Made by a program: the position numbers and the translations under genes | Shown here: in pieces, positions 2,247 through 54,091 of the stretch | Layout: the number at the start of each line of letters is the position of its first letter | How positions within the stretch are numbered: the first letter of the stretch is position 1 | NCBI GenBank assembly: GCA_040260805.1 | Contig: JBDQPD010000001.1 | Location: forward strand, 4,802 to 68,801 | Length of the DNA stretch: 64,000 bases | Direction: 5' to 3' | Origin: Myxococcota bacterium | GTDB lineage: Bacteria; Myxococcota; UBA4151 | Notes under the pieces: model-generated | Databases searched by the model: none | What the model was told of the DNA's origin: nothing | What the model saw: the letters and a program-made list of their open reading frames with translations, nothing else

Positions 2247-2249
2247 GCG

Positions 2250-5367: not shown

Positions 5368-5368
5368 T

Positions 5369-6034: not shown

Positions 6035-6181
6035 CCGAACCGCTCGAACCGGCACCACGATAACTATGCGGGCTCGTTTGGTTAGCGAGTTCGTCATTTT
6101 TTTGGCTCATCTCCTCGATAAAATAGCGATATTTCCGATAAATAAAGCGCTTAATGCTAAACTTGAACAGCGCTCGACCCG

Positions 6182-6613: not shown

Positions 6614-6623
6614 GAGGGCGTTT

Positions 6624-10589: not shown

Positions 10590-10592
10590 GTT

Positions 10593-31895: not shown

Positions 31896-32464
31896 TGAGT
31901 AAGAAACGCGTCGTGACCTTGAGTAAGTTGTACACCCGAAGCGGTGATGACGGTTTGACAGGACTCGTTGGCGGCAGGCGCTGCTCCAAGGATGATCTTC
32001 GGGTGATCAGTTATGGTGAAGTGGATGAACTCAACGCCTGCATGGGGCTCTGTGCTCAGCAAGCCCCCGGTGACTTGAGGGGTCTCATTGAGGTCGTTCA
32101 ACAGCGCTTGTTTGACCTGGGCGCCCACCTCGCTGATGGCCGGCCTGAGCCTCAATTGGCTATTGATCAAGCGGACATTGACCAGCTCGAGGCTTGGGTT
32201 GATTCGGCGCTTGAGGGGCTGCCGGACCTCACCAGCTTCGTCTTGCCTGGCGGTGGAGAGTTGAGCGCTCGAATGCATCTCGCCCGAACGGTTTGTCGCC
32301 GAGCCGAGCGCGCGGTCATCACCTCCCAAACGGTCGCTGAACGCTCGCCCTTGGCTTTGATCTATCTGAACCGGCTCAGTGACCTCCTTTTTGCTTGGAG
32401 TCGCCTCGCCGCTCATCAAGAGGGTCACGCCGAGCTCCTTTGGGTTCCCAAACAAAAGGATTAA
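31877..32464 (+). CDS. ATP:cob(I)alamin adenosyltransferase, PduO/MMAB type
   Basis: TRSGDDGLTGLVGGRRCSKDDLRVISYGEVDELNACMG matches the PduO-type signature. Overlaps the nadE stop by 19 nt. Confidence 0.8.
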   Translation: MEARILMSKKRVVTLSKLYTRSGDDGLTGLVGGRRCSKDDLRVISYGEVDELNACMGLCAQQAPGDLRGLIEVVQQRLFDLGAHLADGRPEPQLAIDQADIDQLEAWVDSALEGLPDLTSFVLPGGGELSARMHLARTVCRRAERAVITSQTVAERSPLALIYLNRLSDLLFAWSRLAAHQEGHAELLWVPKQKD

Positions 32465-32550
32465 CCACGTCGTCAAGAAAGCGTGCGTTGGCCGCTCCGC
32501 CGTCCATCCGATAGTCTTCCTTATGATTTCGGTGCATATCGCCGCTGCTA

Positions 32551-33468
32551 TTGGAGACTGATTCGATGAATACCAGCCGCATTTTTGCGCTCTGCACCCT
32601 TATGTTGGTCAACGCCTGTGGTGGCCCCCCGTCGCCGACCGGCGAAAGTTGCAATGTGGATTCGGACTGCCCGGAAGCATCGGTGTGTTTCCAGGGGTTG
32701 TGCCGAGGCTCTGGCGGCGGAAACAATGGCACCGCTGACGCGGGCGTGGTCGCTCAGGATTCGGGTTCGACGGCTCAAGACTCGGGTGCTGTGACGCCAG
32801 CTGACGCGGGCAATGTCACCCCAGCAGATACTGGTGTTGTCGCTCGTCCGGACGCAGGCGGCGACGAATGCGCCAACGCCGATTGTCCCTGTGAAGACGA
32901 GAGCGATTGCCCGTACACCCATTACTGCAACCGCCGCGACGGTCAGTGCTCACCTTTGCCTGAGGGCACCTGCCGCGACGACCGCAGCTGCGTCGGCAAC
33001 TGCAACATCCCCGAAGGTCGCACGGTCGGTCGCTGCGTTGATTGTCAGGTCGATGCAGACTGCGCAGCCCAGGCGCCGCGCACTCGCTGCCTGAACAACA
33101 CCTGCCGTCTTCCTGAAGGGCAATGTGAAAACAATGCCGACTGCGCCAATGGCGAAAATTGTGTTGATGGATCCTGCCAAGGTGGCGGCAACGGTGGGGG
33201 TGGTTGTCAGGATGACTCTGATTGCCTCGCTGGCGAGAGTTGCTTAGCTGGTCAGTGCTTTTCTCCGGGCGGCGGCTTGCCGGGCGGTTGCGCGGAGCAC
33301 GCGGACTGCGGCGCTGATGAGCAGTGCCTAGCGAACACCTGCCTGAGTAAGTGCAACGTGGGCAATCTCGGCTTACTGTGCTCGCTCCCTCCTCCAGGGG
33401 ACGCCCTGTGCATCTGCCAGATCGCTGGCGGTCTGAGTTGCAATCAGACCACGGGTTACTGCGAGTAA
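32551..33468 (+). CDS. Cys-rich repeat lipoprotein (secreted)
   Basis: Lipobox LVNACGG. About ten repeats of C-x(2-3)-(D/N)SDC-x(5-8)-C-x(3-5)-C. Gly-rich linkers. Confidence 0.5.
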   Translation: METDSMNTSRIFALCTLMLVNACGGPPSPTGESCNVDSDCPEASVCFQGLCRGSGGGNNGTADAGVVAQDSGSTAQDSGAVTPADAGNVTPADTGVVARPDAGGDECANADCPCEDESDCPYTHYCNRRDGQCSPLPEGTCRDDRSCVGNCNIPEGRTVGRCVDCQVDADCAAQAPRTRCLNNTCRLPEGQCENNADCANGENCVDGSCQGGGNGGGGCQDDSDCLAGESCLAGQCFSPGGGLPGGCAEHADCGADEQCLANTCLSKCNVGNLGLLCSLPPPGDALCICQIAGGLSCNQTTGYCE

Positions 33469-33469
33469 G

Positions 33470-33829
33470 CTAAGGCATCGCCAAGGTCACACAAAAGCCT
33501 TGAGCCTGCCGCAGCAGGCGCAACGGTAGCCGCGCTCGTGAGGTTTCGATCTCGAGATCGACAAAGTCCGGCGCGGACTCAACGACGGTCATCCGATCGA
33601 TGCCCCCGTAGCGCCCAGCGAGCCTTTTGAGAAACACCTTAGGGGCTTCTCCAGAGCTATGCAGCCCGAGACTTGATAAGCGCTCCTGTGCGTCGGCGCA
33701 GAGCTGCTCATAGGCTTGATCAGCGCGCCCTTCGGCGAGATCTCGAAGCCAGTTAGCGGCAAAGGTCTCGGGGTCGGGCTTGCTCGAGCACCCTAGAGTC
33801 AAGACAAGACTGACCCATAGGATACGCAT
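33470..33829 (-). CDS. Small lipoprotein, hypothetical
   Basis: MRILWVSLVLTLGCSS lipobox. Start chosen so it abuts the MMPL gene stop. Confidence 0.35.
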   Translation of the reverse strand: MRILWVSLVLTLGCSSKPDPETFAANWLRDLAEGRADQAYEQLCADAQERLSSLGLHSSGEAPKVFLKRLAGRYGGIDRMTVVESAPDFVDLEIETSRARLPLRLLRQAQGFCVTLAMP

Positions 33830-36324
33830 CAGGACGCTTTTCGTTGCCGCCACCGCTCACTGACGGCGAGGATAGCGGGGAGTGTTAGCAGATCCGCAAG
33901 CAGCGCGAGGCTAATACAGATGGCCGATAGATTACCAAAGTCTCGCAGACCATTGAACTCGCTCGGGATGAGCATCGAGAACCCCATCACCAACATCATC
34001 GTCGTAAAGACGACGGGTCGTCCGGCGTGCAGGATCGTGGCGTTCAGGCTCTGATCAAAATCCTGCGTTTTCTGCTCTTGGCGAAATCGCACTAAGAAGT
34101 GGATCGTGTCATCCACCACCACGCCCATGCACATGGCAAAGATAATCACCGTCGAGATACGCAGACTCAGCCCTGTAATGCTCATGATCCCCATGGTCAG
34201 GACCAAGGGCAGTAGGTTCGGCATCATCGCGAGCACGCCCTGCCGCACTGATCGAAGGACAATCACGAACATAACTCCAATGAGCGCAAAGGCGAGCAAC
34301 AAGCTGGTCATCATGTCAACGACGACGGCTTCTACGGCTCGATTAGCTAGTTTACTGCCTCCGGTTAGGGTCCCATTGACCGCGCCAGGCCAGGCGCTGA
34401 GTTCTTCTTCTATCCATTTAATATCATGCGAAAAAAGTGAGGACCCCGAGTCTTTCTTGAGCGCCCCAATACGAACCGCCACGACCCGATCAGCCGACAA
34501 CTTTGCAGCCGTCTTGAGCTCGACCGGCGACTCGTTCACCTCATCGTCTTCGATGATCATTTCGTCATCATCGCCGCCCAACGCATCCTCCAAGACCGAC
34601 ACCTGATCGGCTTGTGGATCATCAAGATAAGGCCGAGTCATCAGATCATCATCGAGCACCATCAGCGCCAGGAGGGCTTCGATCTGATCCTGGCGCTTGG
34701 GCAGCGCTTTTCGGTCGCCAGCTTGGTTTGAGTCCCACAGGCCGTGAAGACTCCCTATGAGATCAGCGAGGCTTAGACTCTTGATTCCCGCTGGGCTCTT
34801 ATCCAGGCGCTCCTGGAGCGCCGCCATGCGCGCAAGGTTCGCCGGACTGATCAATTCGTTGCGGGGTCCTTCGAGGACGATATCAAAAGGCATAGCGCCC
34901 ATGAAATCTCGCTCTAGATTAGTCAGAGCTTGCTGCGCAGGGTGATCCTCTTGGATCTCTTCAAGCGCTCTCGAGAAGGGCGTGATCTGACTTGAGAACG
35001 CAACCCCTGCGATAAAGAGCACCGCCGAAACCACAGTGATGGCTCCAGGTCGAGCCCGCACGAACCGACTGACCGCAGGAAGCACGACCCGATTAAGCCA
35101 GCGGTCTTCGTTGCTTTGACGGTTTCCGGGTTTCGGGGGAGCGATCAACAACAGCGCAGGCACTACGCTGAGGGTGAAAAACCAGGCCAGCGCAATGCCG
35201 CAGGCAGCCGCAAGCCCATAGGCACGGACGAGTTCGACACGCGCCACACCGAGCGAGGCAAAGCCGATCACCGTAGTCGCGGTCGTTAGGGAGATGGCGG
35301 GAAGCATAGCTCGCCAGCCCTCAAGCAGCGCCTGATAGGGGGGCTGATTTTGGTCTAGACCCTCTTCCACGCGCGTCACCAAGTGTATCGCATCACCAAT
35401 CCCAATCACCAAGATCACGGTGACCGTTGAGAAGTTGATGATGTTGATGGCGCCGCCCGTAAGCTTCATCAGACCGAGCCACCAAATGCTGGCGAGCGCG
35501 ACGCTCAAAAACGGCAGCAAGGCGTAGCGAAGCCGCCGAAACGCTAGCCATAAAAACACCACCATGCCGATGCCGACTAAAGGCTGTCGTCCGACGAGCT
35601 CAGCGCGCATCGTTCGGATGATATCGTTTTGAATGTAGGGGATCCCGGTCGTTTGAACCGAAACCTTTGGGTAATCCTTTTGCCAGCCACGCAGCAAGGT
35701 CCGGAGCTTTTCGAGGTAGCGCATACGCACCGCGTCGCTCCGAAGGTCGCAATGCACCCTTGCCATCACGAGGGTTGAGCGCCCGTTGTCGCTGATTAAT
35801 CGCCCCTTGAGCAGAGGGTGTCCCATCAGCTCTTTTTCAGTTCGCTCGGCGGATCCAAACCCTGTATCTTCATAGAGCGGTTCGATCTGGACCGTCTCGT
35901 TACGTCGCCGAAAAACGCTGGCGTTGCTCAGGCTTTGGATGCGGTCGAACGCGCCGCCATCGTTGTTCCCAGGGTTGCTGCACCCTTCGAGACGGCGCAG
36001 GGGTTCATCGTCGGCATCGAAGGCTAGTTTTTCGATGCGCTGATGCAGGTTGCGTAAAGCCTCGAGGGTTTCGGGCTCAAACCAAGTATCTTGGGTCAAT
36101 GAGAGCAAGACGATGGCGTCGCTGTCGTCTTCGGAAAAGCGCTCTTTGACTCGCTCTAAAATCTCTTGGTCTTTACCATCTTGAACGAAGAGTTTGTTGA
36201 CCGTGAAATCAAAGGGGACACTGATCGCAGCAGGCACGAAGACCAAAGCCGTGAGCAGCACCACAGCGCACAAGACACCCCAGGCGAGCAGCAAGGCTTT
36301 GCGAGGCGTTTGAGGCGGGGGCAT
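33829..36324 (-). CDS. RND-superfamily exporter of the MMPL/HpnN-like family (two MMPL/SSD halves)
   Basis: 831 aa. Two 5-6 TM bundles each following a large periplasmic loop. Typical MMPL/SecDF-like topology and Gly-rich TM motifs. Confidence 0.75.
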   Translation of the reverse strand: MPPPQTPRKALLLAWGVLCAVVLLTALVFVPAAISVPFDFTVNKLFVQDGKDQEILERVKERFSEDDSDAIVLLSLTQDTWFEPETLEALRNLHQRIEKLAFDADDEPLRRLEGCSNPGNNDGGAFDRIQSLSNASVFRRRNETVQIEPLYEDTGFGSAERTEKELMGHPLLKGRLISDNGRSTLVMARVHCDLRSDAVRMRYLEKLRTLLRGWQKDYPKVSVQTTGIPYIQNDIIRTMRAELVGRQPLVGIGMVVFLWLAFRRLRYALLPFLSVALASIWWLGLMKLTGGAINIINFSTVTVILVIGIGDAIHLVTRVEEGLDQNQPPYQALLEGWRAMLPAISLTTATTVIGFASLGVARVELVRAYGLAAACGIALAWFFTLSVVPALLLIAPPKPGNRQSNEDRWLNRVVLPAVSRFVRARPGAITVVSAVLFIAGVAFSSQITPFSRALEEIQEDHPAQQALTNLERDFMGAMPFDIVLEGPRNELISPANLARMAALQERLDKSPAGIKSLSLADLIGSLHGLWDSNQAGDRKALPKRQDQIEALLALMVLDDDLMTRPYLDDPQADQVSVLEDALGGDDDEMIIEDDEVNESPVELKTAAKLSADRVVAVRIGALKKDSGSSLFSHDIKWIEEELSAWPGAVNGTLTGGSKLANRAVEAVVVDMMTSLLLAFALIGVMFVIVLRSVRQGVLAMMPNLLPLVLTMGIMSITGLSLRISTVIIFAMCMGVVVDDTIHFLVRFRQEQKTQDFDQSLNATILHAGRPVVFTTMMLVMGFSMLIPSEFNGLRDFGNLSAICISLALLADLLTLPAILAVSERWRQRKAS

Positions 36325-36333
36325 GACCGAAGA

Positions 36334-38145
36334 TCAGCGCTCGATGATCTTGAATTCAACGCGACGGTTTTTAGCACGAGCAGCCTTAGTTCTGGCTTTC
36401 TCTATCGGCCGTATTTCACCAAAGCCGATGGCATCGAGAGCATCAGCAGAGACGCCTTTGCTCACCAAATAGTCTCGCACCGCATCCGCACGCTTTTGAG
36501 ATAAGCGCATGTTCGAGCTCGCCGCACCGACGTCATCGGTATGTCCCTCAACGAGCACCTTGCCGATCTTGTTCGTCACGATCGCATCAGCGACTTGATC
36601 AAGCATCTCAAAGCTCGCTTTGAGCACCTTGGACCGACCGGTTCTAAAGCGAACCTTTTGGCTGATTTCGATCCGCTCTTTGGTCACCTTGATCAGCGTG
36701 TACTTCTTATCAGGGCAGCCATCCTCATCGGTGACACCGTTGATGGTTTCGGGCTGCATCGGGCAACGATCATCGGCGTCTTTGATACCGTCTTTGTCGT
36801 TGTCGTAGTCCGGGCACCCGTCTTCATCTTCGAACTGGTCGCGGTCTTCTTTGTCGTTCGGGCATTTATCGACCTCGTCTTGGAAGCCGTCTTGATCGTT
36901 ATCAAGGTCCGGACAGCCGTCTAAGTCTTCAAAGCCGTCGCGGTCTTCGGCGACCGTCGGACATTTATCCGTGGTGTCCGGGACACCGTCGGCGTCGTTG
37001 TCGCGGTCTGGGCAGCCATCTTCGTCTTTGAACCCGTCTTTGTCTTCAGGGTCTGTCGGGCAGCGATCGTCGCGATCTAAGATTCCGTCGTTATCCGAGT
37101 CGGCGTCTTCTTCTTCTGGGCAACCATCGTTGTCTTGATAGCCGTCGAAGTCTTCAGGTTTGTTCGGACATTTGTCTTCGTCGTCTAAGAAGCCATCGCC
37201 GTCTTTGTCAGGCGGTGGGCAGCCTTTGTGCTTCCGCAAGCCTGGGATCTCTGGGCAGGCATCTTCGACGTCAAGAACGCCATCGTTATCCGAATCTTTT
37301 TTCGGGATGATGACTTTCTTGGGTGTTTTGGGTTTTGGCGCACAGGGGCGTGACTCTTCACGGGTGCGGACCGCTAATGTGCCGGCCTTTTGAGCCGACT
37401 TTTTAGCTTCGAACCAAAGCCCTAGCTTGATGGAGACCCGAGCAAACTCGGCATGAGCTTCGGCTTCCGCCAGTGACTTGGGTGCGCAACGGATTGCTCC
37501 GCTTCCACGCGCTTGCTCTAGAATCTCTTCGTACGCTTTAATCTGCGCTAGCAGTCGAGCCGTACCACCACCACCGGTAGACTCGGTGGTTGCGATGAGT
37601 CGGTTGGCGCGACGATCTTCGACCTCTTTGCACAAGATCGGCCGGTCCCAGTAGGTGCTGCTCTGGGCTAAACCAGCCAGCTTACGAAGTTCTGTTCCCA
37701 CCGCCTGCAGGCGGTCGCCGGATGTTGAGACGGCATCTCGGGCAAGATTGACTCGTGCGATTTTAGCGCCTGATAAAGCCGACTTCTGACTCGCTTGTTC
37801 GAGATCTCCCGACACCGTTTTGAGCGTACTTTGCATGGCCTTAACGCCACCCATACCCTCATTGAGCTTTTGCAGGCCACCGCGCAAACCAGGGGGGAGC
37901 TCGTCGAGCTTTGATTCATCGATTTTGAATCGCTTCTCATCGACTTTGATGATGCCCCTAAGTGCGCTGGCTTGATCGGCTAGATCGTGGAGCGCACAGG
38001 TCGCCTCTTCCATATCCTCAAGCGGCTTGAGCGCCTTGAAAGCCTTGGCATACGGCTCGTCGATGGACGGGTCGCCGACCGAGCGATAGGGAGAAACAGT
38101 TGAGCAACCTGCGAGGGTAAGCAGGCAAAGCGAAAGCCTTACCAT
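36334..38145 (-). CDS. OmpA-family peptidoglycan-binding protein with tandem thrombospondin type-3 (TSP3) calcium-binding repeats and N-terminal coiled-coil domain
   Basis: C-term OmpA_C motif (RFRTGRSKV...NRRVEF). Central DxDxDGxxDxxDxCP repeats, at least 10 copies. Lipoprotein-like N-term LAGCST. Confidence 0.8.
   Translation of the reverse strand: MVRLSLCLLTLAGCSTVSPYRSVGDPSIDEPYAKAFKALKPLEDMEEATCALHDLADQASALRGIIKVDEKRFKIDESKLDELPPGLRGGLQKLNEGMGGVKAMQSTLKTVSGDLEQASQKSALSGAKIARVNLARDAVSTSGDRLQAVGTELRKLAGLAQSSTYWDRPILCKEVEDRRANRLIATTESTGGGGTARLLAQIKAYEEILEQARGSGAIRCAPKSLAEAEAHAEFARVSIKLGLWFEAKKSAQKAGTLAVRTREESRPCAPKPKTPKKVIIPKKDSDNDGVLDVEDACPEIPGLRKHKGCPPPDKDGDGFLDDEDKCPNKPEDFDGYQDNDGCPEEEDADSDNDGILDRDDRCPTDPEDKDGFKDEDGCPDRDNDADGVPDTTDKCPTVAEDRDGFEDLDGCPDLDNDQDGFQDEVDKCPNDKEDRDQFEDEDGCPDYDNDKDGIKDADDRCPMQPETINGVTDEDGCPDKKYTLIKVTKERIEISQKVRFRTGRSKVLKASFEMLDQVADAIVTNKIGKVLVEGHTDDVGAASSNMRLSQKRADAVRDYLVSKGVSADALDAIGFGEIRPIEKARTKAARAKNRRVEFKIIER
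36720..37300 (-). repeat. Coding tandem repeat: TSP3-like Asp-rich calcium-binding repeats inside the OmpA-family gene
   Basis: Repeated GA(C/T)-rich codon units encoding DxDxDGxxDxxDxCP. They generate spurious open frames on the opposite strand (e.g. the 36541-36924 '+' ORF). Confidence 0.6.
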
Positions 38146-38465
38146 TCGTATTTTCCTTTACGCTTTTTCTGCGTTGCAGGTCGGCTGTGCATCCGGCGAC
38201 GGGTGATATCCAACGCCTTGCTCGCTCGGATCAGCGCCAGCCCAGCGAACTCGCTTGCGAACTGGTACTCACTGTGACCGTCATATTCTCGAGCCTTTTT
38301 AAGAAACAACTCAGCGCTCGAATACCAATAGGGAGCGAAGCGCTGGGCGTTGAGCAGCCTAGCTTCTTCAAGCGCGGCATCCGCTGCCACGATATTGCTG
38401 GTGGCGATCACGGGTCCACATGCCGACAGTGAACACAACAAAGCAATAACGAGCGCTCGACGCAT
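38139..38465 (-). CDS. DUF4398-like small lipoprotein (commonly paired with OmpA-family genes)
   Basis: Lipobox LSACGP. Helical Ala-rich pattern ADAALEEARLLNAQRFAPYWYSSAELFLKKAREY. 7-nt overlap with the downstream OmpA gene. Confidence 0.5.
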   Translation of the reverse strand: MRRALVIALLCSLSACGPVIATSNIVAADAALEEARLLNAQRFAPYWYSSAELFLKKAREYDGHSEYQFASEFAGLALIRASKALDITRRRMHSRPATQKKRKGKYEW

Positions 38466-38489
38466 AGCTTCCCCTTATTGGGCTTCCCT

Positions 38490-39632
38490 TTAGGGGCTTT
38501 CCACGGGGGTGAGCAAGCCTTCAGAAATGATTCCTAAATAAGCATCATGCAGAACGACCCGCCAGGGCTCCCCATCAAAGTTGATCGTTGGAACGCCCCA
38601 GCTGTCCGCGTAGTCTGGCGGACGACCGGCGCTGGCTCGAGCGAATGTGCCTAGTGGGTATCCTTGATCCTGGGCATTAAGAATATACACGCTGGTCTGG
38701 GGTAAGGCGTCAGCGCCTTCGCCTAAGCGCAGGGGATCAAAGACCAGCACATGCCGAGCCGGTGTCGCTCGAACGTTCTCGATGACCGCAACGGTTCCAT
38801 TGAGAATGTACGATCCAGCAAAGCGCTGATCCATCTCGGCGCGCCACACCACACAGCGCTCGCAGTCACCGCAGCTGGTGGTCGAGCGACCCCGAAAGCA
38901 CACCATCCGCTCGCCGTCGCGGCCGCAGCGTGTTTCGCCGGTTCCGCACTGATCTAAACCGCTTGAGCACGGACCGCCGGGAGAGCAGAACCGACCAGAA
39001 AACGGATTGTTCTCATCTTGCATGCAGACGGCTCGACAGAACCCGCCAGGAGTGCAGGTGTGTCCTTCGCTGCAGTCTCCATCATTCGCACAAGGTTGAT
39101 TAGGATTAACACAATCCGAATCATCTAGGCATTGCTTCGCGTTCGCAGTGATCCGTGAGGCGCACCCTCCGCAGACGTTGCGAGGGTTGTCATCGGGGCA
39201 GATCGTTGCGGTCGCATCAGCGTTACAAATGACCGTCCCGCAACCGTGAGCCCCACAGGTTTCGCCGGGCTGGCCAGCGCTGTCATCAAGCTCTTCGCAG
39301 CCTCCACAGATGTTCGCTTCATCAAAGAAACACTCGAGCGTCCCCTCGGTGGAGCACAGATATTGACCGCAGCCGGTCTGGCCGCAGGTGTCTCCGTAGG
39401 CGCAGCCCTCTTCGGGGCAGTCAGGACCGAAAATAACGGTGTTGCGATCACAGGGAGGCTCGACCGGTCCAGTGTCCGGCGCGGGGCCAGTGTCGATGAC
39501 GCCGGCTTCAGGCTCGCCCGCATCAACAGCAGCGTCCGGTTGGCCGACATCAACGATCACGCCCGCATCTGGAGCTGGGGGTTCTGGGATGCAGGCGCTT
39601 GCGAGCGCCAGGATGCATACTAATCGATTCAA
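38490..39632 (-). CDS. Cys-rich secreted lipoprotein with uncharacterised ~130-aa C-terminal domain
   Basis: Lipobox LASACIP. Pro/Asp/Ala-rich linker. About 40 Cys in CxxC/CGGC-type spacing, then a Cys-free C-terminal domain. Confidence 0.45.
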   Translation of the reverse strand: MNRLVCILALASACIPEPPAPDAGVIVDVGQPDAAVDAGEPEAGVIDTGPAPDTGPVEPPCDRNTVIFGPDCPEEGCAYGDTCGQTGCGQYLCSTEGTLECFFDEANICGGCEELDDSAGQPGETCGAHGCGTVICNADATATICPDDNPRNVCGGCASRITANAKQCLDDSDCVNPNQPCANDGDCSEGHTCTPGGFCRAVCMQDENNPFSGRFCSPGGPCSSGLDQCGTGETRCGRDGERMVCFRGRSTTSCGDCERCVVWRAEMDQRFAGSYILNGTVAVIENVRATPARHVLVFDPLRLGEGADALPQTSVYILNAQDQGYPLGTFARASAGRPPDYADSWGVPTINFDGEPWRVVLHDAYLGIISEGLLTPVESP

Positions 39633-40477
39633 GGACGATCTCCGTCTGCGGCTGATGAAGACTCTACATCGGCTGGCTTGGTCTTTCCAGCGCCTGGCGA
39701 TGCAGCGCGAATCCAGCGTAGCGCTCGAGCCCGCACTTTAGCTTCTCGATCCGTCTTTGGCTTGATCTTTTCAAGGCGCGCCAGGTGAGCGTTTGTCCCG
39801 ACATGACCCAGCCCTATCCATAAGGTGATGCGTCTCGTTTGTGGGGCATCGTTTGCTTCGAGTGACCGGGCCCAGTCGTCTACGCGCAGGGTGCTACCCT
39901 CCCGGATGAGTCGCTCCATTTTGCTGTGTGGTGTTGGTCGTTGAGCGGGGGCGTTTAGAGCGGCCTCGATCGCAGCGCTAACTAAAGCGGGTAAGGTCCG
40001 GATCAAAGCCTGGTTATCGGCCTGCCTGGCCAGTTTGAGTTCGGCACGGCCTTCCATCGCCCGAAGCGTTGTGGTTCGATCGTTTCCTACGACTTCGACG
40101 ACGACTCGACATGCGCATGATGGGCTCGAGCCACCCCGGCAGCCGACGATCACACCCTGCAAACGTAAGCTGATGATACCCATTTGGCGCTTGGGCTTGA
40201 GTTGAGCATCAATCACCGAACGGAGCTCTTTTTGGGTCGCCTGGTCGTCGAGATCTTGGATGGCGATTTGACCTTCGAAGGGCTCCCATTGGTGAGGGCT
40301 AGGGAGGGCTGTTGCGCCTCGCTGAAAGAGGAGGCGCCCGGCTTGGTTAGGGGTCGTACAGGCACCGAGAAGGAAAACGATGCTGATTCGAGCTAGACTC
40401 GACCGCCGAGCGCGCCGATGCCCGGTGAGATCGCTCGCGCTTCGCGAGGCTGGGGAGCTGATGGTCCGTACATTCAT
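39629..40477 (-). CDS. Hypothetical lipoprotein
   Basis: IVFLLGACTTPN lipobox. No recognised domains. 4-nt overlap with the downstream Cys-rich gene. Confidence 0.35.
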   Translation of the reverse strand: MNVRTISSPASRSASDLTGHRRARRSSLARISIVFLLGACTTPNQAGRLLFQRGATALPSPHQWEPFEGQIAIQDLDDQATQKELRSVIDAQLKPKRQMGIISLRLQGVIVGCRGGSSPSCACRVVVEVVGNDRTTTLRAMEGRAELKLARQADNQALIRTLPALVSAAIEAALNAPAQRPTPHSKMERLIREGSTLRVDDWARSLEANDAPQTRRITLWIGLGHVGTNAHLARLEKIKPKTDREAKVRARALRWIRAASPGAGKTKPADVESSSAADGDRP

Positions 40478-41393
40478 GACGAGTGTCCTGATCCTCTCAG
40501 CGGCATCACCGACATTAGCTGGCGACTATCCGATCCTGCGTGATCGCAGCAAGTACGGCTCGATGCCGCACGACCAAGTCGACGCCACCATTCGTGATAT
40601 TGCACGTTTCCGCCACCTTCGTCGCCGAGTGCTCAGCCACAGCTCGCTGATGCTCGGCGCCAATTATCGGCCCGACCCACTCGGTGAGGGTCAGCAGGGT
40701 CGCGTGGACTCTGACCCACGCTTTCAGCTGGCTCCGGTCGACTGCGTGACCTTCGTCGAGTCGACCTTAGCCATGGCGCTAGCTGGCGACCTGGACCAAG
40801 CAAAGCGATGGATGGACCGGCTGCGGTACTCGGGTACTAAGGTCGGCTTTGCTCGTCGTAATCACTTTATGCTCGCCAACTGGCTGCCGCATTTAAAGCG
40901 CCACCGGGTGCTGCGCGACATCACCCGCACGATCGGTGAAGGTGACACCCTCGTTCATGACTACGATAAGGTGAATTGGTCGCAGATCGCGCCGAGGTTT
41001 TTACCCGCTAACTTTGACTCGATGCATCCACCGAAAGGTCGTGTCGAGCTGCCTTTGGTCAACTTGGACACACTCGAAGCCAACCTAAAGGCTGTGCCGA
41101 ATGGAACGATTTTGCTGCTGGTCCGCGTGGAGCGACCGCGGATTCCTGTGCGCATCTCCCATCTGGGCTTCGTGATTCACCACAAGAGCGGTCGGACGAT
41201 TTTTCGTCACGCCAGCCAAGAGGGCTGGGGTCGTGTCGTTGATGAGGATTTGATCCGCTACCTTCGAAGGCTCGATAACCGCAGCAAGTGGGCTATTCAG
41301 GGGGTTAGTTTGCAGCTTCCTAGGCACCCAAAGACGCTCCCGGGGACCTTGCTTGAACCCGATCAGATTGCGCTAAAAGGCTGGTTGCCTTAG
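40461..41393 (+). CDS. Secreted hypothetical protein with papain-like Cys...His arrangement (candidate amidase/peptidase-like, DUF1460-like)
   Basis: Start chosen at MVRTFMTSVLILSAASPTLA (signal peptide). Candidate catalytic motifs VDCVTFVES and SHLGFVIHH. Confidence 0.35.
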   Translation: MVRTFMTSVLILSAASPTLAGDYPILRDRSKYGSMPHDQVDATIRDIARFRHLRRRVLSHSSLMLGANYRPDPLGEGQQGRVDSDPRFQLAPVDCVTFVESTLAMALAGDLDQAKRWMDRLRYSGTKVGFARRNHFMLANWLPHLKRHRVLRDITRTIGEGDTLVHDYDKVNWSQIAPRFLPANFDSMHPPKGRVELPLVNLDTLEANLKAVPNGTILLLVRVERPRIPVRISHLGFVIHHKSGRTIFRHASQEGWGRVVDEDLIRYLRRLDNRSKWAIQGVSLQLPRHPKTLPGTLLEPDQIALKGWLP

Positions 41394-41466
41394 TGCATCG
41401 ACACGCTAACCGATTGCGACAGACCAGCGCTCATGGCAGCGTGTCGCTACGCTTTGGAGACGATCT

Positions 41467-42570
41467 ATGTCCCGCCTTCCTTTGATCTATCTTTCCGCTC
41501 TGGTGGTCGCGACCACTGGCTGTCCAGATGATGACCAGTTTGGTCGCCTGAATTTTGACGCGGGCCCGCCCGCTGACGCCGGCCCGGCGCCGAACGATCT
41601 CCCGATCAATGTGGGCGACCCGTTCACCTATCAAGGGATTTCGCGCACGCCGAATGGATGCGTTGGCGGGTTCATCGACGCTCAATGCGAAGAGCAGGGT
41701 AGCTGGTATCTGAACATGACGGTGACCGATAAGGTCCCGGATAAAGCCAGCAACGTGACCAGTGGAAGCTCGTGCGCGTCCGGTCAGACCCTAGTCGAGC
41801 CGACCCAGGATCGGTGCGCAACGTGCCCCAGCGATGATATTCCGACCTTGCTCAACGGCGCGCCGGACGCCGATGGAGTCGCAGGCGATCCTCAAGTGTA
41901 CTGCATCCCAGCTCGCGGCTGGGACAACGTGTACAACCTGCGCGCGATGAGCGACTACAGCATGTCGGTTGAGCACCCTGCGCCGCCCAATCTTGGTAGT
42001 TCTTGGCTGTACAACCTAGCACCTTGGGATGAATCGCAGATTGCTCCCTTCGCTGGTGAGAAGAGTTTTCGCACGAACGTCGCCATGCTGCCCCGCTCAT
42101 CGAAGACGCCGTTTCCTTGGGCGCTGGACCTGAGCAAATGGGATGTTGTGTCTCAAGAGTTTGTTGATCGTATCCTCGAGGTTGATCCGGACGCAGACAT
42201 TCAGCGACCCGAGGGTGGGGCGTACATGAAAGCGCTGATGAACTATGATCTCAACGGCGTTGCGACGCGCCACACCATCGAGGTTTTGTATCATGAGCGC
42301 GGCTACCTTTGTAAGTTCAACGAGGAGCTTGGCGCACCAGCCCCGGGTTCAGACCGACGTATTCGAAATGGTGAAACCGGCGGTATGAACGTCTTGATCC
42401 AACTCAAAAAAGATCCCGATACGGCGCTGGGTGTAAACACAGTTGATGGTGAGGCGACTTGCGTCTCGGATGGTGATTGCCCCGACCGGTTTAGCTGCCG
42501 CGGCGAGCCGAAGCGCTGCCGTCGCTTGATGCCACGCTGTTGCATCCCTGGCGTCGGAGGCTGTCGCTAG
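41467..42570 (+). CDS. Hypothetical lipoprotein, Cys-containing
   Basis: Lipobox VVATTGCPDD. No recognised domains. C-terminal Cys cluster CRGEPKRCRRLMPRCCIPGVGGC. Confidence 0.4.
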   Translation: MSRLPLIYLSALVVATTGCPDDDQFGRLNFDAGPPADAGPAPNDLPINVGDPFTYQGISRTPNGCVGGFIDAQCEEQGSWYLNMTVTDKVPDKASNVTSGSSCASGQTLVEPTQDRCATCPSDDIPTLLNGAPDADGVAGDPQVYCIPARGWDNVYNLRAMSDYSMSVEHPAPPNLGSSWLYNLAPWDESQIAPFAGEKSFRTNVAMLPRSSKTPFPWALDLSKWDVVSQEFVDRILEVDPDADIQRPEGGAYMKALMNYDLNGVATRHTIEVLYHERGYLCKFNEELGAPAPGSDRRIRNGETGGMNVLIQLKKDPDTALGVNTVDGEATCVSDGDCPDRFSCRGEPKRCRRLMPRCCIPGVGGCR

Positions 42571-47112: not shown

Positions 47113-47868
47113 GTGACCATTATCGCTGCCATTCCTGCTCGTTTTGCCGCTGCCCGTTTGCCGGGTAAGCCGCTGCTCGACCTTGGCGGTCAACCGATCA
47201 TCGCTCATGTGGTCAAAGCGGCTCTAGCGACCCCAAGTATCGATCAGGTGATGGTGGCGACCGATCACCAAGGAATAGCTGATGCGGCGACCGCTGCCGG
47301 CGCTGATGTAGCGATGACCGATCCGGACTTACCCTCAGGCTCGGATCGAATAGGCGCCGCTTTGGCGGGGCTTGATTACGATCTAGCGCTCAACATTCAA
47401 GGCGATGAACCCGAGCTTGATCCAGCAGCGCTCGAGGCGCTCATCCATACGATGCGGTCGACCCCTCAAGCGCAGATCGGGACGCTGAGCGCGCCTCTAG
47501 GTACCGACCAGCTGCGAGACCCTCACGCGGTCAAGGTGGTCTGCGATCGGTACGGCTTTGCGTTGTATTTTAGCCGAGCAGCGCTCGGCGCGGATCGCGA
47601 GGCTTTGATTCAAGCGGATCCAAACCCGCGCAGCGCGGCGCGCCGGCATGTCGGTGTTTATGCCTATCGGCAGCACGCGCTCGAACAGTTTTTAGCCTGC
47701 GAGCCGTCGTCGCTTGAGCGTCTTGAGCGCCTCGAGCAGCTGCGAGCTCTCGAACTCGGTATGCGGATTGTTGTGGTTCCTGTGGACAAGGCTCCCCGAG
47801 GCATCGATACCCCAGAAGACTTATTGGCGGCTCGTCGTCGCTTTGGTGACCAAGAGGTAGACCCATGA
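47113..47868 (+). CDS. kdsB: 3-deoxy-manno-octulosonate cytidylyltransferase KdsB
   Basis: [20 protein letters not shown] matches the KdsB N-term (IIPARYASTRLPGKPL). GTG start. Confidence 0.85.
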
Positions 47869-49478
47869 ACCGTTCCCCTAAGTACATCTTTTTTACCGGC
47901 GGTGTGGTTTCGTCGCTCGGTAAAGGGCTCGCCGCGGCGTCGACCGCAGCGCTGCTTGAAGCGCGCGGCCTGACCGTGACCAACATGAAGATGGATCCTT
48001 ATCTCAATGTCGACCCTGGCACCATGAGCCCTTACCAGCACGGTGAGGTTTTTGTGACCGATGATGGCGCCGAAACGGATCTGGATTTAGGTCATTATGA
48101 GCGCTTTACCCACAGCCGTTTGAGCCAAGCCAACAACATCACCAGTGGTCGCGTGTATTGGTCGGTGCTCGAGCGCGAGCGTCGCGGTGATTACCTCGGC
48201 AAGACCATCCAGGTGATTCCGCATATTACCGACGAAATTAAGCGCCGTATTCGGGACACCGCTCATCAAAGCGGCGCTGACATCTGCATCGTCGAGATCG
48301 GCGGAACGGTCGGTGATATTGAGAGCTTACCGTTCCTTGAAGCCATCCGTCAGATTCGCAACGAAGAGGGTCATCAAAATACAGCGCTTGTTCATCTCAC
48401 GCTGGTCCCCTTCATCGCCGCTGCGGGCGAGATGAAGACGAAACCGACGCAGCATTCGGTGAAAGAGCTGCTCAGCATCGGTCTAGGTTGCGACTTTTTA
48501 CTCTGTCGCTCGGAAGATGTTCTCGCTGAGGAGCTCAAACAAAAGATCTCTGCCTTTTGCAATGTACCACCACGAGCGGTGATCTCTGCTTATGATGTGC
48601 GCTGCATCTATGAGCTCCCCTTGGTGCTCAACGAACAAGGTCTCGACGCACAGATTTGTGATGCGCTGAATATTTGGACCGGAGCGCCTCGTTTGGAAGG
48701 GTGGCATTCGGTGGTTCGCCGCTACCTCGAGCCTAAGAATGGTGAGGTCACCATCGGCGTGGTGGGTAAGTATGTCGGCTTAGTTGAGAGCTATAAGAGC
48801 CTCAATGAGGCGCTCGCTCACGCCGGGATGCATCATGACGTTCGCTTGCGTATCGAATACCTGGACTCCGAAGAGATCGAGTCCGACGACGCACCGCTCA
48901 AAGCCGTCGATGGGGTGCTGGTCCCTGGGGGATTTGGTGAACGTGGTTCAGAGGGAAAGATCTCGGCGATCCGCTATGCGCGTGAGCAGAAGGTTCCGTA
49001 TTTTGGCATCTGCTTAGGTATGCAGCTCGCGGTGGTTGAACATGCGCGCCACTGCAGCGGCCTTGAAGGCGCCAACTCCATCGAGCTTGACCCTGACACG
49101 AAGCATCCGGTCATCAGCTTGATGGAGGCTCAAAAAGAGGAGGCGAACCTCGGGGGGACGATGCGGCTTGGCGCCTTTGATTGCCAGGTCACTCAAGGCA
49201 CTCGCACCGAGGCTGCGTATGACGAAGAGATGATCTCAGAGCGCCACCGCCACCGCTTCGAGTTTAATGACGCCTTTCGGACTCAGCTTGAAGAGACGGG
49301 CTTAGTGGTCGCGGGTATTCATCAAGATAGCGGCTTGGTCGAGGTGGTAGAGCGCGCCGATCATCCTTGGTTTGTCGGTTGCCAATTCCACCCAGAGTTC
49401 AAGTCGAGACCCGGCGAACCTCATCCTTTGTTTCGTGATTTTATCGCCGCCTCGATGAGCGCTCGGAGCGCTCAATGA
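47865..49478 (+). CDS. pyrG: CTP synthase PyrG
   Basis: N-term [16 protein letters not shown]. GATase domain with GICLGMQ and HPEF motifs. 537 aa. Confidence 0.95.
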
Positions 49479-50287
49479 GCGCCGCAGTTCAGGTCGGTCC
49501 CTACTCGGTCGGCGACGGCGCGCCCTACCTGTTGATGGCGGGTAATTGCGTGGTTGAGGATCTAGAGACGGCACGCCGCACGGCGGAGGTGCTGCTCAAG
49601 GAAACAGCGAACAGGCCGTTCAACCCCGTGTTTAAGGCGAGTTTTGATAAAGCAAACCGTACCCGCAGTGACTCTCACCGTGGTCCGGGTATGGACGCCG
49701 GGCTTGAGGTGCTCGCCAAGATAAAAGCTGAGACAGGGCTGCCCTTAGTGACCGATGTGCATCTTCCTGGTCACTGTAAACCCGTAGCAGAGGTTGTTGA
49801 TATTCTGCAGATCCCAGCATTTTTATGCCGTCAGACGGACCTGCTTGAAGCGGCCGCTGCGACCGGCAAAACGGTCAACATCAAAAAGGGTCAGTTTGTC
49901 AGCCCCGAGGCGATGCAGCACGCGGTCACAAAGATTCATGAAATGAACAACCCAAGCGCCTTGTTAACCGAGCGAGGAAGCTCATTTGGTTATGGTGATT
50001 TGATTGTCGACTATCGAGGTTTTGCGACCATGAGAGATTGTGCCCCTCTGATCTTCGATGCGACGCATTCTGCGCAAAAGCCAGCGGGTAGCGGCGGGGT
50101 GACCGGCGGCGATAGGCGCCTGGCCTTACCTTTAGCGCGAGCCGCCGCGGCGGTTGGAGTGGATGGTTTGTTCATGGAGATCCATCCCGACCCCAACCAA
50201 GCCCTTTCCGACGCCGCCAACAGCTTAGATTTTGATTTGTTTAGAAGGTTGTTAAACGAGGTTGAACGATTGCGATATGAATCATGA
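49475..50287 (+). CDS. kdsA: 2-dehydro-3-deoxyphosphooctonate aldolase KdsA
   Basis: DAHP/KDO8P synthase family pattern ([24 protein letters not shown]). Confidence 0.9.
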
Positions 50288-50775
50288 ACACGCTCCCTTG
50301 GTCGCGCATCAAACTCTTGGTCTTGGATGTTGATGGTGTCTTGACCGATGGTGGTCTTTGGGTTGCTGCGGATGGCTCGGTCACCAAGAGGTTCTTTGTT
50401 CGAGATGGTTCGGGAATCGTTCGTCTGCAGCGAGTCGGTATTCCCGTGTGCTGGTTGACCGGCCGCGCCGACCCTGCTGTGGCTCGACGCGCAGAGGAGC
50501 TAAAGATCGCTCGTCTGATCGCTGGAAGTCACGACAAAGCGGATGCGCTTCACAGCCTGAGCCTGGGTATGGGCGTTTCTTTGGACGAGATTGCTTATGT
50601 GGGCGATGATCTGCTCGACCTGCCGGCAATTCGGTTGGCCGGTTTATCGGTTGCTCCTTGTGACGCTTCAGCCGAGGTCCGGGACGAAGTCGACTGGGTC
50701 TCGGATATTGCGGGCGGACAAGGCGTGGTACGCTGGGTCTGTGATCGTCTCATCGCCGAGCAAAAGGAAGATTAG
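50284..50775 (+). CDS. kdsC: KDO 8-phosphate phosphatase KdsC (HAD IIIa)
   Basis: LVLDVDGVLTDGGLWV and VGDDLLDLP motifs. Confidence 0.8.
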   Translation: MNTLPWSRIKLLVLDVDGVLTDGGLWVAADGSVTKRFFVRDGSGIVRLQRVGIPVCWLTGRADPAVARRAEELKIARLIAGSHDKADALHSLSLGMGVSLDEIAYVGDDLLDLPAIRLAGLSVAPCDASAEVRDEVDWVSDIAGGQGVVRWVCDRLIAEQKED

Positions 50776-50778
50776 ATC

Positions 50779-51207
50779 GTGTTTTTGGCAACGCTCTTAC
50801 TGCTGGCAGCACCGACAAAAGCGGACAATGAGGTCCACTTTCAGGCGGATAATTGCAGCTATGGTCGAGCGATGTCTGAAGCCGTTTGTAGTGGTCGTGT
50901 GCAGGTTCGCCGCGGCGATGCTCGGCTACGTTGTCGCAGTTTGACGGTTCGATTCGGCGATGACGGCCGCATTGATCAGCTGGACTGCGTGGGCGCGGTC
51001 AAGTTTCGTCGGGGTGAGGTTGAAGAAGCCACCAGTGAGCGAGCGGCTTATACCCGTAACGACGCTAAAGTTGTTCTGCAGGGCGAAGCCAAGCTTCGGC
51101 GTGGGCGCGCCCGACTCGCTGGAGACCGTGTGATCTTCTTGCTCGATCAAGATAAGGTACGTGTTGAAGGTCAAGCGCGTGGTCACTTCGATAACGAGGC
51201 GCGTTAG
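50779..51207 (+). CDS. lptA: LPS transport periplasmic protein, LptA/OstA-N-like
   Basis: Short signal peptide then OstA-like beta-jellyroll pattern. Position between kdsC and lptB. No separate lptC seen. Confidence 0.55.
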   Translation: MFLATLLLLAAPTKADNEVHFQADNCSYGRAMSEAVCSGRVQVRRGDARLRCRSLTVRFGDDGRIDQLDCVGAVKFRRGEVEEATSERAAYTRNDAKVVLQGEAKLRRGRARLAGDRVIFLLDQDKVRVEGQARGHFDNEAR

Positions 51208-51929
51208 TGGCTGCATTGCTTGAGGCGCGTGGCTTGGTTCGGCACTTTGGCGAGCGCCGAGTGGTTGATGAGGTCAGCTTGAGTTTGGACTCAGGTCAGG
51301 TTTTGGGTTTGCTGGGACCCAATGGCGCCGGAAAGACGACGACTTTTCGAATGATCGCCGGGTTGCTCAAGCCCGACCGCGGGAGCGTTTTCATCGATGG
51401 AGAGGATGTCACTAAGCTTCCTTTGTATCGACGCGCCGGGCGGGGTCTGGGTTATCTCGCTCAGCGCGGCGGATTGTTTCCAGGGTTGGATGTGCGCGCT
51501 AATTTGATGGTAGCCGGCGAGATCGCAGGCTTAGCTCCGCCGGACGCCCGCGCTCGAGCGGACGAGCTGATCGAGCGTCTAAGCCTTGGTCATGTCTCTG
51601 ATGGTCGAGAGCAGACGCTCAGTGGCGGTGAGCGGCGTCGCGCAGAGATCGCTCGAGCGTTGATGGTTCGCCCGCGGATGCTCTTGTTTGATGAGCCCTT
51701 CGCTGGCGTTGACCCCATGGCGGTGAGTTCGCTTCAGGATGAGATGCGTGCGCTGGCGGATACTGGCTTATCGATTTTGATTACGGATCACGCTGTGGCC
51801 GCTACTTTTTCTATTTGTGATCAAGTCGCTGTGCTGAACGAGGGGCGAGTGTTGGTGTCGGGTCCACCGGCTAAAGTTGAAGCTGACCCACGGGTTCGAG
51901 CGACTTACTTGGGGCCGCCAAGCGCTTAG
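51207..51929 (+). CDS. lptB: LPS export ABC transporter ATP-binding protein LptB
   Basis: Walker A GPNGAGKTT, signature LSGGERRR, Walker B LLFDEP. Immediately upstream of rpoN. Confidence 0.9.
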   Translation: MAALLEARGLVRHFGERRVVDEVSLSLDSGQVLGLLGPNGAGKTTTFRMIAGLLKPDRGSVFIDGEDVTKLPLYRRAGRGLGYLAQRGGLFPGLDVRANLMVAGEIAGLAPPDARARADELIERLSLGHVSDGREQTLSGGERRRAEIARALMVRPRMLLFDEPFAGVDPMAVSSLQDEMRALADTGLSILITDHAVAATFSICDQVAVLNEGRVLVSGPPAKVEADPRVRATYLGPPSA

Positions 51930-52003
51930 GCAGAACGCCTCGTTCAGCGGCGGCCCCTTGCGTCGCAGCGCCGACCGCACCACACTCCGTCTAGGAGTAC
52001 CGG

Positions 52004-53485
52004 TTGTTCCCGTCCCTACAACACAATTTAAAGATCACCACGCAGCTGCGCATGACGCCGCAACTGCAGCAGGCGGTTAAGCTGCTGCAGTACAACCGTG
52101 CTGAGCTGGTTGAGTTCATCAATTCGGAAATGCTTGAAAATCCGACGTTAGAGGAAAAGCCACCAGAAGACCGATCCACCGAGACCAGTGACGGACAGAC
52201 CTTCAGCCAAAGCGCTGAAGCGGAGCAAGCGCATTCGGCGACAGCGCAAAGCGCCGAGCACGCGAGCGACAGTGAGGCCGTTCACAACACTCAAATCGAC
52301 TGGAACCGAGTCGATATGAACGACACGATCCACCGGTTCCAAGGCGTTCGGCCTGCCGACGACTTGCCTGGTTACGATCAAACGCTGACGCGCTCAGAGA
52401 CATTGACCGAGCACCTGATCTGGCAGCTGCGCATGCTCCGCCTTGAGCGACCCGTCCTCGAAGTCGCCGTCGAGTTGGTCCACAACCTCGATGAGAAAGG
52501 CTGGTTTTCTGAGGGCTTAGATGGCTGGAAGGCCTATGTGAGCAATTCGGACCACCCGGCAAAAACGCTTGAGCGTGCTCGTCAAGAGCTTCTAGAGCTC
52601 GACCCGATTGGTGTGGGCGCTTTGGATTTGAAAGAGTGCCTTCTCGTTCAACTCCGGGCGCTGAACTTAGACAATAGCCACGCTTATTTGTTGGTTGATC
52701 AGCATCTTGAATCACTCGGCAGCCGCGATCTTCGTCAGGTCTCCAAACAGGTCGGAATCACCGTCGAAGAACTCGAAGAAGCGAAAGTGGCAATTGGCTG
52801 TTTAGAGCCCCGCCCAGGGCGAGCGTTCATGAGCGATGATCTAGAGCGCAACCCTTTCGTGACGCCCGATGTGCGTATCTACAAAGAGGCTGATGAGTGG
52901 GTTGTCTACCTCAATGAGGACGGCATGCCGCGCCTAAGGGTGTCTCGATTTTATCAAAAAGCGTATGAACGAGGGGGACTGACCAAAGAAGAGCGGGCTT
53001 ATGTGATCGAGCGCTTACGTCGCGCCGAGTGGGTCACTAAATGTATCTTCCAGCGCCAAACAACGATCCGACGAGTCTGTGAAAGCATTCTTAGATTCCA
53101 ACATGAATTTTTTGAGCGCGGACCCAAACATCTCAAACCCTTGGTCTTGCGCGATGTCGCTGAAGACATCGGCGCCCATGAGTCGACGGTTTCTCGAGTG
53201 ACGTCGAATAAGTACGCCGAAACGCCCCAAGGCTTGCTGCCGCTCAAGTATTTCTTCTCAGCTCGTCTTGCCAGCAGTTCAGGTGCCGGTGATGTTAGCG
53301 CAGAGGCTGTAAGGCAGCGTATCGCTGGAATGATTAAGACTGAAGAAGCGTCCAAACCCTTTAGTGACGCTCAAATTGTGAGGCTGCTCAAAGCAGAGGG
53401 CATTGAAATCGCCCGACGCACGGTGGCTAAATACCGTGAACAGTTGTTGATCCCCGCTGCGGGGAAAAGGCGGGTGAGACGCTGA
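52004..53485 (+). CDS. rpoN: RNA polymerase sigma-54 factor RpoN
   Basis: N-term LKITTQLRMTPQLQQAVKLLQ. HTH and RpoN box ARRTVAKYRE. TTG start with AGGAG RBS. Confidence 0.95.
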   Translation: MFPSLQHNLKITTQLRMTPQLQQAVKLLQYNRAELVEFINSEMLENPTLEEKPPEDRSTETSDGQTFSQSAEAEQAHSATAQSAEHASDSEAVHNTQIDWNRVDMNDTIHRFQGVRPADDLPGYDQTLTRSETLTEHLIWQLRMLRLERPVLEVAVELVHNLDEKGWFSEGLDGWKAYVSNSDHPAKTLERARQELLELDPIGVGALDLKECLLVQLRALNLDNSHAYLLVDQHLESLGSRDLRQVSKQVGITVEELEEAKVAIGCLEPRPGRAFMSDDLERNPFVTPDVRIYKEADEWVVYLNEDGMPRLRVSRFYQKAYERGGLTKEERAYVIERLRRAEWVTKCIFQRQTTIRRVCESILRFQHEFFERGPKHLKPLVLRDVAEDIGAHESTVSRVTSNKYAETPQGLLPLKYFFSARLASSSGAGDVSAEAVRQRIAGMIKTEEASKPFSDAQIVRLLKAEGIEIARRTVAKYREQLLIPAAGKRRVRR

Positions 53486-53507
53486 GCACAATGAAAAGGA
53501 GAGGTAG

Positions 53508-54068: not shown

Positions 54069-54091
54069 GTGCGATTGATCGTTAGGGCGGT

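Follow-up and report, generated by a model that had tools for sequence, protein, structure and literature searches.

Gene arrangement of the locus

The DNA analysed here (the window, 64,000 nucleotides of contig JBDQPD010000001.1 from an uncultured bacterium filed under Myxococcota) carries on its minus strand, from 33470 to 40477, six consecutive open reading frames (ORFs) with overlaps or gaps of no more than 24 bp between neighbours. They encode a permease of the resistance-nodulation-division (RND) type and five predicted lipoproteins. From the upstream to the downstream end, with lengths in amino acids (aa), they are:

g1, 39629..40477, minus strand: predicted basic lipoprotein of 282 aa, no known domain, lineage-specific
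g2, 38490..39632, minus strand: predicted acidic lipoprotein of 380 aa, TTG start
g3, 38139..38465, minus strand: predicted basic lipoprotein of 108 aa with a DUF4398 helical domain
g4, 36334..38145, minus strand: predicted acidic lipoprotein of 603 aa with a helical N-terminal domain, TSP3 repeats and an OmpA domain
g5, 33829..36324, minus strand: MMPL/RND permease of 831 aa, nearest to the HAE3 subfamily
g6, 33470..33853, minus strand: predicted small lipoprotein, longest ORF 127 aa, likely start at the ATG at 33829 (119 aa)

A preliminary description of the locus had the genes packed in this way, and reading the junctions from the DNA bore this out. With the likely start of g6, the junctions from g1 to g6 measure -4, +24, -7, +9 and -1 nt. 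The g1 and g2 genes share TTGA, a coordinate overlap of 4 nt; 24 bp separate g2 from g3, whose ATG follows a purine-rich ribosome-binding site of the GGGGA type; g3 and g4 share ATGGTAA (7 nt), and 9 bp lie between g4 and g5. Taking the longest ORF, g6 would overlap g5 by 25 nt. The ATG at 33829, the start chosen by gene callers in all ten database homologues (10/10), overlaps the g5 stop codon by one base (TGATG). Three of the five junctions have overlapping start and stop codons.

For comparison, 20 related loci (numbered with an L below) were gathered by exact-protein look-up and by scanning genomic and metagenomic data. Spacings in L003 and L010 are close to those of the window, and in L012, from a deeper clade, they have loosened to only 26-59 bp. 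This arrangement is not due to chance: L001-L004, L010, L012, L013, L018 and L023 all have the genes in the same order and closely spaced. As the six genes are co-directional and translationally coupled, their co-transcription is very likely, judging from the arrangement of the sequence. None of them has a paralogue elsewhere in the window at E<=1e-3. Rfam found no RNA family in the region, and the sole repeats returned by a repeat search are the TSP3 units of g4.

Both ends of the run abut genes of the opposite strand. Upstream, the longest ORFs of g1 (minus) and of a divergent AmiA-like amidase gene (plus) overlap at their 5' ends by 98 bp (40380-40478). A candidate pair of start codons for the two genes shares the palindrome TCATGA at 40475-40478; if this pair is used, the promoter of each gene would therefore lie within the other. 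Where the amidase gene really starts is uncertain, since orthologue calls span 276 to 315 aa. Downstream, the stop codons of g6 and of a convergent Cys-rich gene (32551-33468) are one base apart (33468-33470), which leaves no terminator space for either gene.

All five proteins other than the permease have a lipobox within their first 40 residues (LGAC, ASAC, LSAC, LAGC and TLGC by pattern search), and the lipobox Cys is invariant in the orthologue alignments of g1, g3 and g6. On these motifs the five products are predicted to be lipoproteins. A Lys at position +2 is the inner-membrane retention signal in Myxococcus xanthus, and none of the five (0/5) has one; we infer an outer-membrane location for them.

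The MMPL permease and its small lipoprotein

The Pfam MMPL model (PF03176) matches g5 in two stretches with 124.9 bits, well above its cut-off of 20.5. Among subfamily models HAE3 (TIGR00921) scores best, at 197.9 bits, and this stays under its cut-off of 351.9. The hydropathy profile agrees with transmembrane helices arranged 1+5 / 1+5, one helix falling under the threshold, and with two large periplasmic loops at about 31-242 and 446-671 (about 210-225 aa each). Asp residues in transmembrane helices 4 (TM4, D311) and 10 (TM10, D738/D739) are invariant and hold in relatives down to 40% identity.

The preliminary description had labelled this exporter 'HpnN-type', a label that the models do not support: g5 scores 85.2 bits against a cut-off of 1100 with NF052374 and 137.8 against 751.85 with TIGR03480, and Pfam scans of approximately 50 ORFs across the 64-kb window found no squalene-hopene cyclase, hpn or sterol gene. 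It is likewise far from the sterol transporter BstA (NF045600, 63.8 versus 1400 bits) and from MmpL3 (NF052608, 23.1 versus 1400 bits). With HpnN and the HAE3/MMPL exporters, g5 has in common the MMPL domain, the two-loop, RND-consistent hydropathy and a conserved core Asp motif. HpnN is also its best solved relative (6wu0, 5khn), and the TM10 Asp motif of g5 aligns with the Asp-containing TM4 motif (GVDF) of these structures. However, this similarity (E about 1e-12) is confined to one transmembrane half, Asp occurs in TM4 as well as TM10 of g5 whereas the second half of HpnN lacks it in the alignment, periplasmic loop 2 of g5 contains a variable acidic insertion, and the window has no hopanoid genes. 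The insertion, EDALGGDDDEMIIEDDEVNESP, lies at 34530-34600 of the window (g5 residues ~577-597); it varies in length and is the least conserved segment among orthologues.

The g6 protein has the lipobox LTLGC and two invariant Cys, at positions 44 and 113. No Pfam or NCBIfam family matches it, and only ten homologues were found in databases. Its predicted fold is an NTF2-like alpha+beta cone, by which we mean a curved antiparallel sheet against which three helices pack; the confidence of the model is modest (predicted local distance difference test, pLDDT, 62.5), and we assign g6 as a putative NTF2-like lipoprotein with the same modest confidence. In the deeper clade, the pump gene is followed by a 112-aa ORF that is a remote homologue of g6 (hhalign E 3e-4, with conserved Cys). 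A 103-aa ORF following the MMPL paralogue in L006 was considered as another g6-like lipoprotein and proved to be a small membrane protein instead.

Periplasmic phospholipid carriers of the MlaC/Ttg2D type have an NTF2-like fold. They differ from g6 in several respects: there is no sequence similarity, mature g6 would have about 100 residues and be lipid-anchored where MlaC has about 190, the partner of g6 is an RND pump and not an ATP-binding cassette (ABC) transporter, and generic NTF2-like proteins outscore MlaC for g6. Another parallel to the gene pair is offered by L008 and L009, in which an MMPL gene accompanies genes for a DUF1329/TP_0789-like (LolA-like) lipoprotein and a DUF1302 outer-membrane protein. 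In both systems the pump adjoins a periplasmic lipoprotein that might take up a hydrophobic cargo, but the partner is LolA-like there and predicted to be NTF2-like here, no DUF1302 barrel is encoded here, and the two pumps are only about 24% identical. The g5-g6 pair resembles such pairings of an MMPL exporter with a carrier-like periplasmic lipoprotein, and most likely moves a hydrophobic component of the envelope outward.

A putative tether between outer membrane and cell wall

Following its lipobox (LAGC), g4 has an N-terminal domain of helical type (about residues 15-275, about 260 aa) with four conserved Cys, for which Pfam gave a weak tropomyosin-like match only. Residues 280-480 contain six TSP3 motifs, DxDxDGxxDxxD, alternating with short DGxxDxDGCP units and including 12 Cys in six pairs. 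The TSP_3 model (PF02412) scores 46.9 bits against a threshold of 25, with both the motif and the Cys pair present, and calcium binding is predicted from the motif; at the DNA level the repeats have a period of 99 nt. The C-terminal OmpA domain (PF00691, residues 500-594, 75.6 bits against 27.2) has the motif GHTDDVG...NMRLSQKRADAV, invariant in five orthologues, from which peptidoglycan binding is predicted. The preliminary description was thus right that an MMPL exporter is encoded together with a TSP3-OmpA anchor and a DUF4398 protein. It was also suspected that g4 contains a second DUF4398 domain, at residues 188-272. This is unproven: BLASTP and Pfam found none, and hhalign gave E 0.0019 with a probability of 14%.

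Pal and Pba are lipoprotein anchors that tie the outer membrane to peptidoglycan (PMC7947798). The g4 protein resembles them in its lipobox and in an OmpA domain at the C-terminus whose peptidoglycan-binding motif is canonical, and both are among its best NCBIfam matches. However, it is almost three times as long as Pba, with the additional N-terminal domain of ~260 aa and the six TSP3 repeats, and it scores under the cut-offs of both PA1041/Pba (NF053612, 113 versus 250 bits) and Pal (TIGR02802, 79.9 versus 125.35 bits). By analogy, g4 would work like Pal and Pba while lying outside both families by score.

The top NCBIfam match of g4 is TraB (NF033763), at 177.3 bits against a cut-off of 700, with residues 410-601, the TSP3 and OmpA parts, aligned to positions 318-498 of the 522-position model. 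TraB of Myxococcus xanthus acts in outer membrane exchange (PMC12045341, PMC3325183); it has an N-terminal outer-membrane beta-barrel, and a TSP3 spacer links its membrane part to its OmpA domain (PMC12045341). TSP3 repeats followed by an OmpA domain are common to both proteins, as is the position of the gene downstream of one encoding a Cys-rich, surface-type protein, and the long TSP3 spacer of g4 is of the kind that links membrane part and OmpA domain in TraB. TraB has a beta-barrel and no lipobox, whereas g4 has a lipobox, and no family common to the upstream protein g2 and TraA was detected. The lipobox and the helix-type N-terminal domain of g4 argue against an N-terminal beta-barrel, as far as can be judged from sequence.

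The assignment of g3 (lipobox LSAC) to DUF4398 (PF14346) needs some qualification. With 24.4 bits, g3 itself stays under the gathering score of 27.9, and the support comes from its L012 orthologue (60% identical), which reaches 39.7 bits. Residues 16-90 of g3 are near-invariant across five orthologues. The myxobacterium Paraliomyxa miuraensis has a DUF4398 gene immediately ahead of a gene of the OmpA family, and this pair comes without an MMPL gene (PMC10051162, Table 1). A search of the literature turned up no study of DUF4398 function, and a plasmid search for annotated DUF4398-OmpA pairs returned nothing for g3 and four unrelated OmpA proteins for the C-terminus of g4.

Two lineage-restricted lipoproteins

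The first gene product, g1, has the lipobox LLGAC, with Cys40 invariant in six orthologues, and a net charge of +17. It has no Pfam or NCBIfam match even at E<=10 and only 10 matches among 1.84 billion representative proteins. It is also the fastest-evolving member, 45-50% identical between relatives in which g4 is 82-86% identical.

The preliminary description presented g2 as a Cys-rich secreted protein. Cys-rich it is, with 30 Cys within residues 61-260, but its lipobox (LASAC) makes it a predicted lipoprotein, so that all five non-pump proteins have a lipobox. A linker rich in Pro, Asp, Ala and Gly (about residues 15-60) precedes the Cys-rich region, and a Cys-free beta-sandwich is modelled at the C-terminus (about 259-380). 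No Pfam or NCBIfam family matches g2 at E<=0.01, and none matches at E<=10 in Pfam. We also considered g2 as a TraA. It matches no PA14-like variable domain, myxobacterial Cys-rich repeat or MYXO-CTERM model, and its C-terminus (...LLTPVESP) has no tag.

Distant homologues of g2 (30-35% identical) were found beside a gene for a two-domain M16 peptidase in two unrelated contigs (L014 6072-11095, L016 2085-5975). This neighbourhood hints at a different conserved partnership for the g2 family.

Conservation in related loci

Close relatives of the MMPL protein are confined to metagenomes and two metagenome-assembled genomes titled 'Myxococcota bacterium'; the scans yielded this lineage plus one planctomycete-like paralogue of 25% identity (L027). 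The order g1-g6 is kept in every locus long enough to judge (L001-L004, L010, L018 and the deeper clade L012/L013/L023), down to 40% identity in MMPL and 29% in g1. Identities of the deeper clade to the window are 40% for g5, 54% for g2, 60% for g3, 57% for g4 and 29% for g1, compared with 53% for NAD synthase.

The flanks are conserved as well: about 20 kb of housekeeping genes accompany the cluster in every contig that has it, with genes for a radical-SAM aminomutase, aspartate-semialdehyde dehydrogenase, a HAD hydrolase, a 367-aa lipoprotein and the AmiA-like amidase on one side, and for a Cys-rich DUF7107 protein, cob(I)alamin adenosyltransferase and NAD synthase on the other. As all cluster loci share these flanks, their synteny does not distinguish function from shared ancestry. 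In the synteny check proposed in the preliminary description, order is kept in all relatives found, but the outcome is uninformative given that the flanks are kept too.

Outside the lineage the picture is different. MMPL homologues with 24-26% identity have unrelated neighbours and none of the other cluster genes near them; one such group sits between a DUF1302 protein and a DUF1329/TP_0789-like lipoprotein. The outside homologues of g2 (30-35%), adjoining the M16 peptidase, have no OmpA or MMPL gene near them, and those in L014/L015 also lie near a giant Laminin_G/YD-shell protein, with a smaller Laminin_G protein in L016.

Rates of evolution differ among the members. Identity to L010 and L001-L003 is 79-86% for g2, 79-86% for g3 and 82-86% for g4, compared with 59-70% for g5, 50-61% for g6, 45-50% for g1 and 65-74% for NAD synthase. 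Hence g2, g3 and g4 are conserved as much as housekeeping genes or more, and the tether pair and the stalked lipoprotein g2 are more constrained than the pump.

Chromosomal surroundings

Elsewhere the window contains flagellar genes, genes for 3-deoxy-D-manno-oct-2-ulosonic acid (Kdo) synthesis and lipopolysaccharide transport, rpoN and genes for regulation of the phosphotransferase system, and cofactor genes. A conserved run at 47113-56351 comprises kdsB, pyrG, kdsA, a kdsC-like phosphatase gene, an lptB-like ABC ATPase gene, rpoN, hpf, ptsN, hprK and rapZ; with these neighbours the cluster belongs to a core region of the chromosome for envelope and regulatory functions. The flagellar set lies at 430-7907 (fliG, fliH, fliI, a 230-aa ORF, fliK, flgD and flgE), and in the deeper clade flgG-flgA-flgH-flgI-flgJ occupy L012 1-4137, about 5 kb from the cluster. 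Cultured Myxococcota glide and are not known to have flagella. Three consecutive minus-strand genes at 8803-11762 encode SurA-like or PPIC-type peptidyl-prolyl isomerases.

Two of the neighbouring genes encode Cys-containing proteins. The convergent gene at 32551-33468 encodes a 305-aa DUF7107 protein with 38 Cys (12.5%) and a signal-peptide-like N-terminus ending in VNAC. It is 89.5% identical in L017/L018, contigs that are otherwise 98% identical, and hence its rate of evolution is well above that of its neighbours; two DUF7107-type Cys-rich genes occur in the deeper clade (L012 16274-18684). On the strand opposite to the cluster and just upstream of it, beside the AmiA-like amidase gene, 41467-42570 encodes a predicted lipoprotein of 367 aa with a TTGC lipobox, 15 Cys and no known family. 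This protein is 75-87% identical in relatives in which NAD synthase is 65-74% identical.

One transcription unit, several functions?

Are these six genes a single machine, or several functions that share a transcript? We favour the second reading, to which we give about an even chance: one transcription unit made of three envelope modules, set in the core chromosome of a bacterium that is flagellated, uncultured and filed under Myxococcota. In the module formed by g5 and g6, a proton-driven RND permease of the MMPL/HAE3 kind would extract from the inner membrane an envelope component that is hydrophobic, most likely a lipid, and pass it towards the outer membrane; g6 may be the acceptor, holding the cargo in its hydrophobic cone. 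In the module formed by g3 and g4, g4 would sit in the outer membrane and bind peptidoglycan through its OmpA domain, with six disulfide-braced, calcium-binding TSP3 repeats spanning the periplasm. The DUF4398 lipoprotein g3 would be its recurrent partner, the two together tethering the outer membrane to the cell wall. The lineage-restricted lipoproteins g1 and g2 would form the remaining module, in which g2 may carry its beta-sandwich head on a disulfide-rich region joined by a flexible linker to the lipid anchor, with a role that is probably structural or binding. Products of different modules may be in physical contact.

Several results weigh against this reading. A scan of the region for promoters and terminators found no promoter-like sites and terminator-like sites at chance level: in the 10 kb from 32000 to 42000 there is no sigma-70-type promoter-like site on either strand, where shuffled sequences lead one to expect 2.6, which suggests that promoters in this interval do not follow the E. 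coli consensus. No lipid-synthesis genes occur nearby, according to the Pfam scans of the window. The pairing of g3 with g4 is based on adjacency alone, the g6 model is only moderately confident and NTF2-like folds have many functions, and the rates of the members are very unequal, from 45-50% identity in g1 up to 79-86% in g2-g4. Lastly, conservation of gene order is inseparable from conservation of the whole region, and reflects descent at least as much as function.

The preliminary description saw in the locus one dedicated export-and-anchoring module. All six products would then form a single trans-envelope machine, the pump exporting a component that the lipoproteins and the OmpA anchor receive and fix at the outer membrane. 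Tight packing, translational coupling, an order unbroken in every relative found (down to 40% identity in MMPL and 29% in g1) and the envelope location of all six products by sequence speak for such a machine. The nearest outside homologues of g5 and g2 nevertheless lack these partners, DUF4398-OmpA is found without MMPL (PMC10051162), evolutionary rates are unequal, and the ~20 kb of unrelated housekeeping flanks kept in every cluster contig preclude an independent test of linkage; the claim is not supported in that form, and we consider a single machine rather unlikely. The parts are new members of familiar kinds of protein, or variants of them, from a poorly sampled uncultured lineage. A lineage-specific, undescribed envelope machine in which a lipid or lipid-linked component goes from the pump through the NTF2-like lipoprotein to a calcium-stiffened g3-g4 strut that docks g2 would be quite improbable; if it existed, this flagellated branch of the Myxococcota would have a physical coupling between the export of lipids and the anchoring of the envelope. 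Adjacency could, on the other hand, be merely inherited, with a general efflux or housekeeping RND pump and independent envelope genes lying side by side in a stable core region. Collinearity from the radical-SAM gene to NAD synthase in all relatives, the different rates of the members and region scans that found no shared regulatory element all agree with this, but it fits poorly with start/stop overlaps at three of five junctions and spacing that stays short even at 29-60% identity, with a small lipoprotein gene directly after the pump in both clades, and with a single compartment for all six products, and we regard it as unlikely.

The resemblance of g4 to TraB raises one more alternative, in which g2 and g4 would be a TraA/TraB-like surface pair, g2 acting as receptor or adhesin and g4 as wall anchor, and material for the outer membrane would come from the pump. 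No NCBIfam model matches g4 better than TraB (177 bits over the TSP3 and OmpA parts), and the organism is filed under Myxococcota; TraA, encoded with TraB, combines a stalk rich in Cys with a recognition domain at its distal end (PMC12045341), a layout similar to that modelled for g2. Against this, the TraB score is far under the 700-bit cut-off, g2 would be anchored at the opposite end from TraA, and a DUF4398 gene stands between g2 and g4. It is above all because TraB has an N-terminal barrel where g4 has a lipobox and a helical N-terminal domain, because g2 lacks PA14, variable-domain and MYXO-CTERM matches, and because g2 is highly conserved (79-86%) whereas TraA is polymorphic that we find such a pair very improbable.

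Significance for envelope biology

Outside the model Proteobacteria, outer-membrane lipid transport and the spacing between membrane and wall are only partly understood in diderm bacteria. An RND exporter and an NTF2-like lipoprotein, if coupled, would represent a further way to pair a pump with a periplasmic carrier. At present the locus is of value mainly as a lead for structure-based prediction of partners and for checks in metatranscriptomes. The conservation of an OmpA anchor with a long, presumably calcium-dependent spacer, stricter than that of housekeeping enzymes, points to an important structural role for this protein in the lineage.

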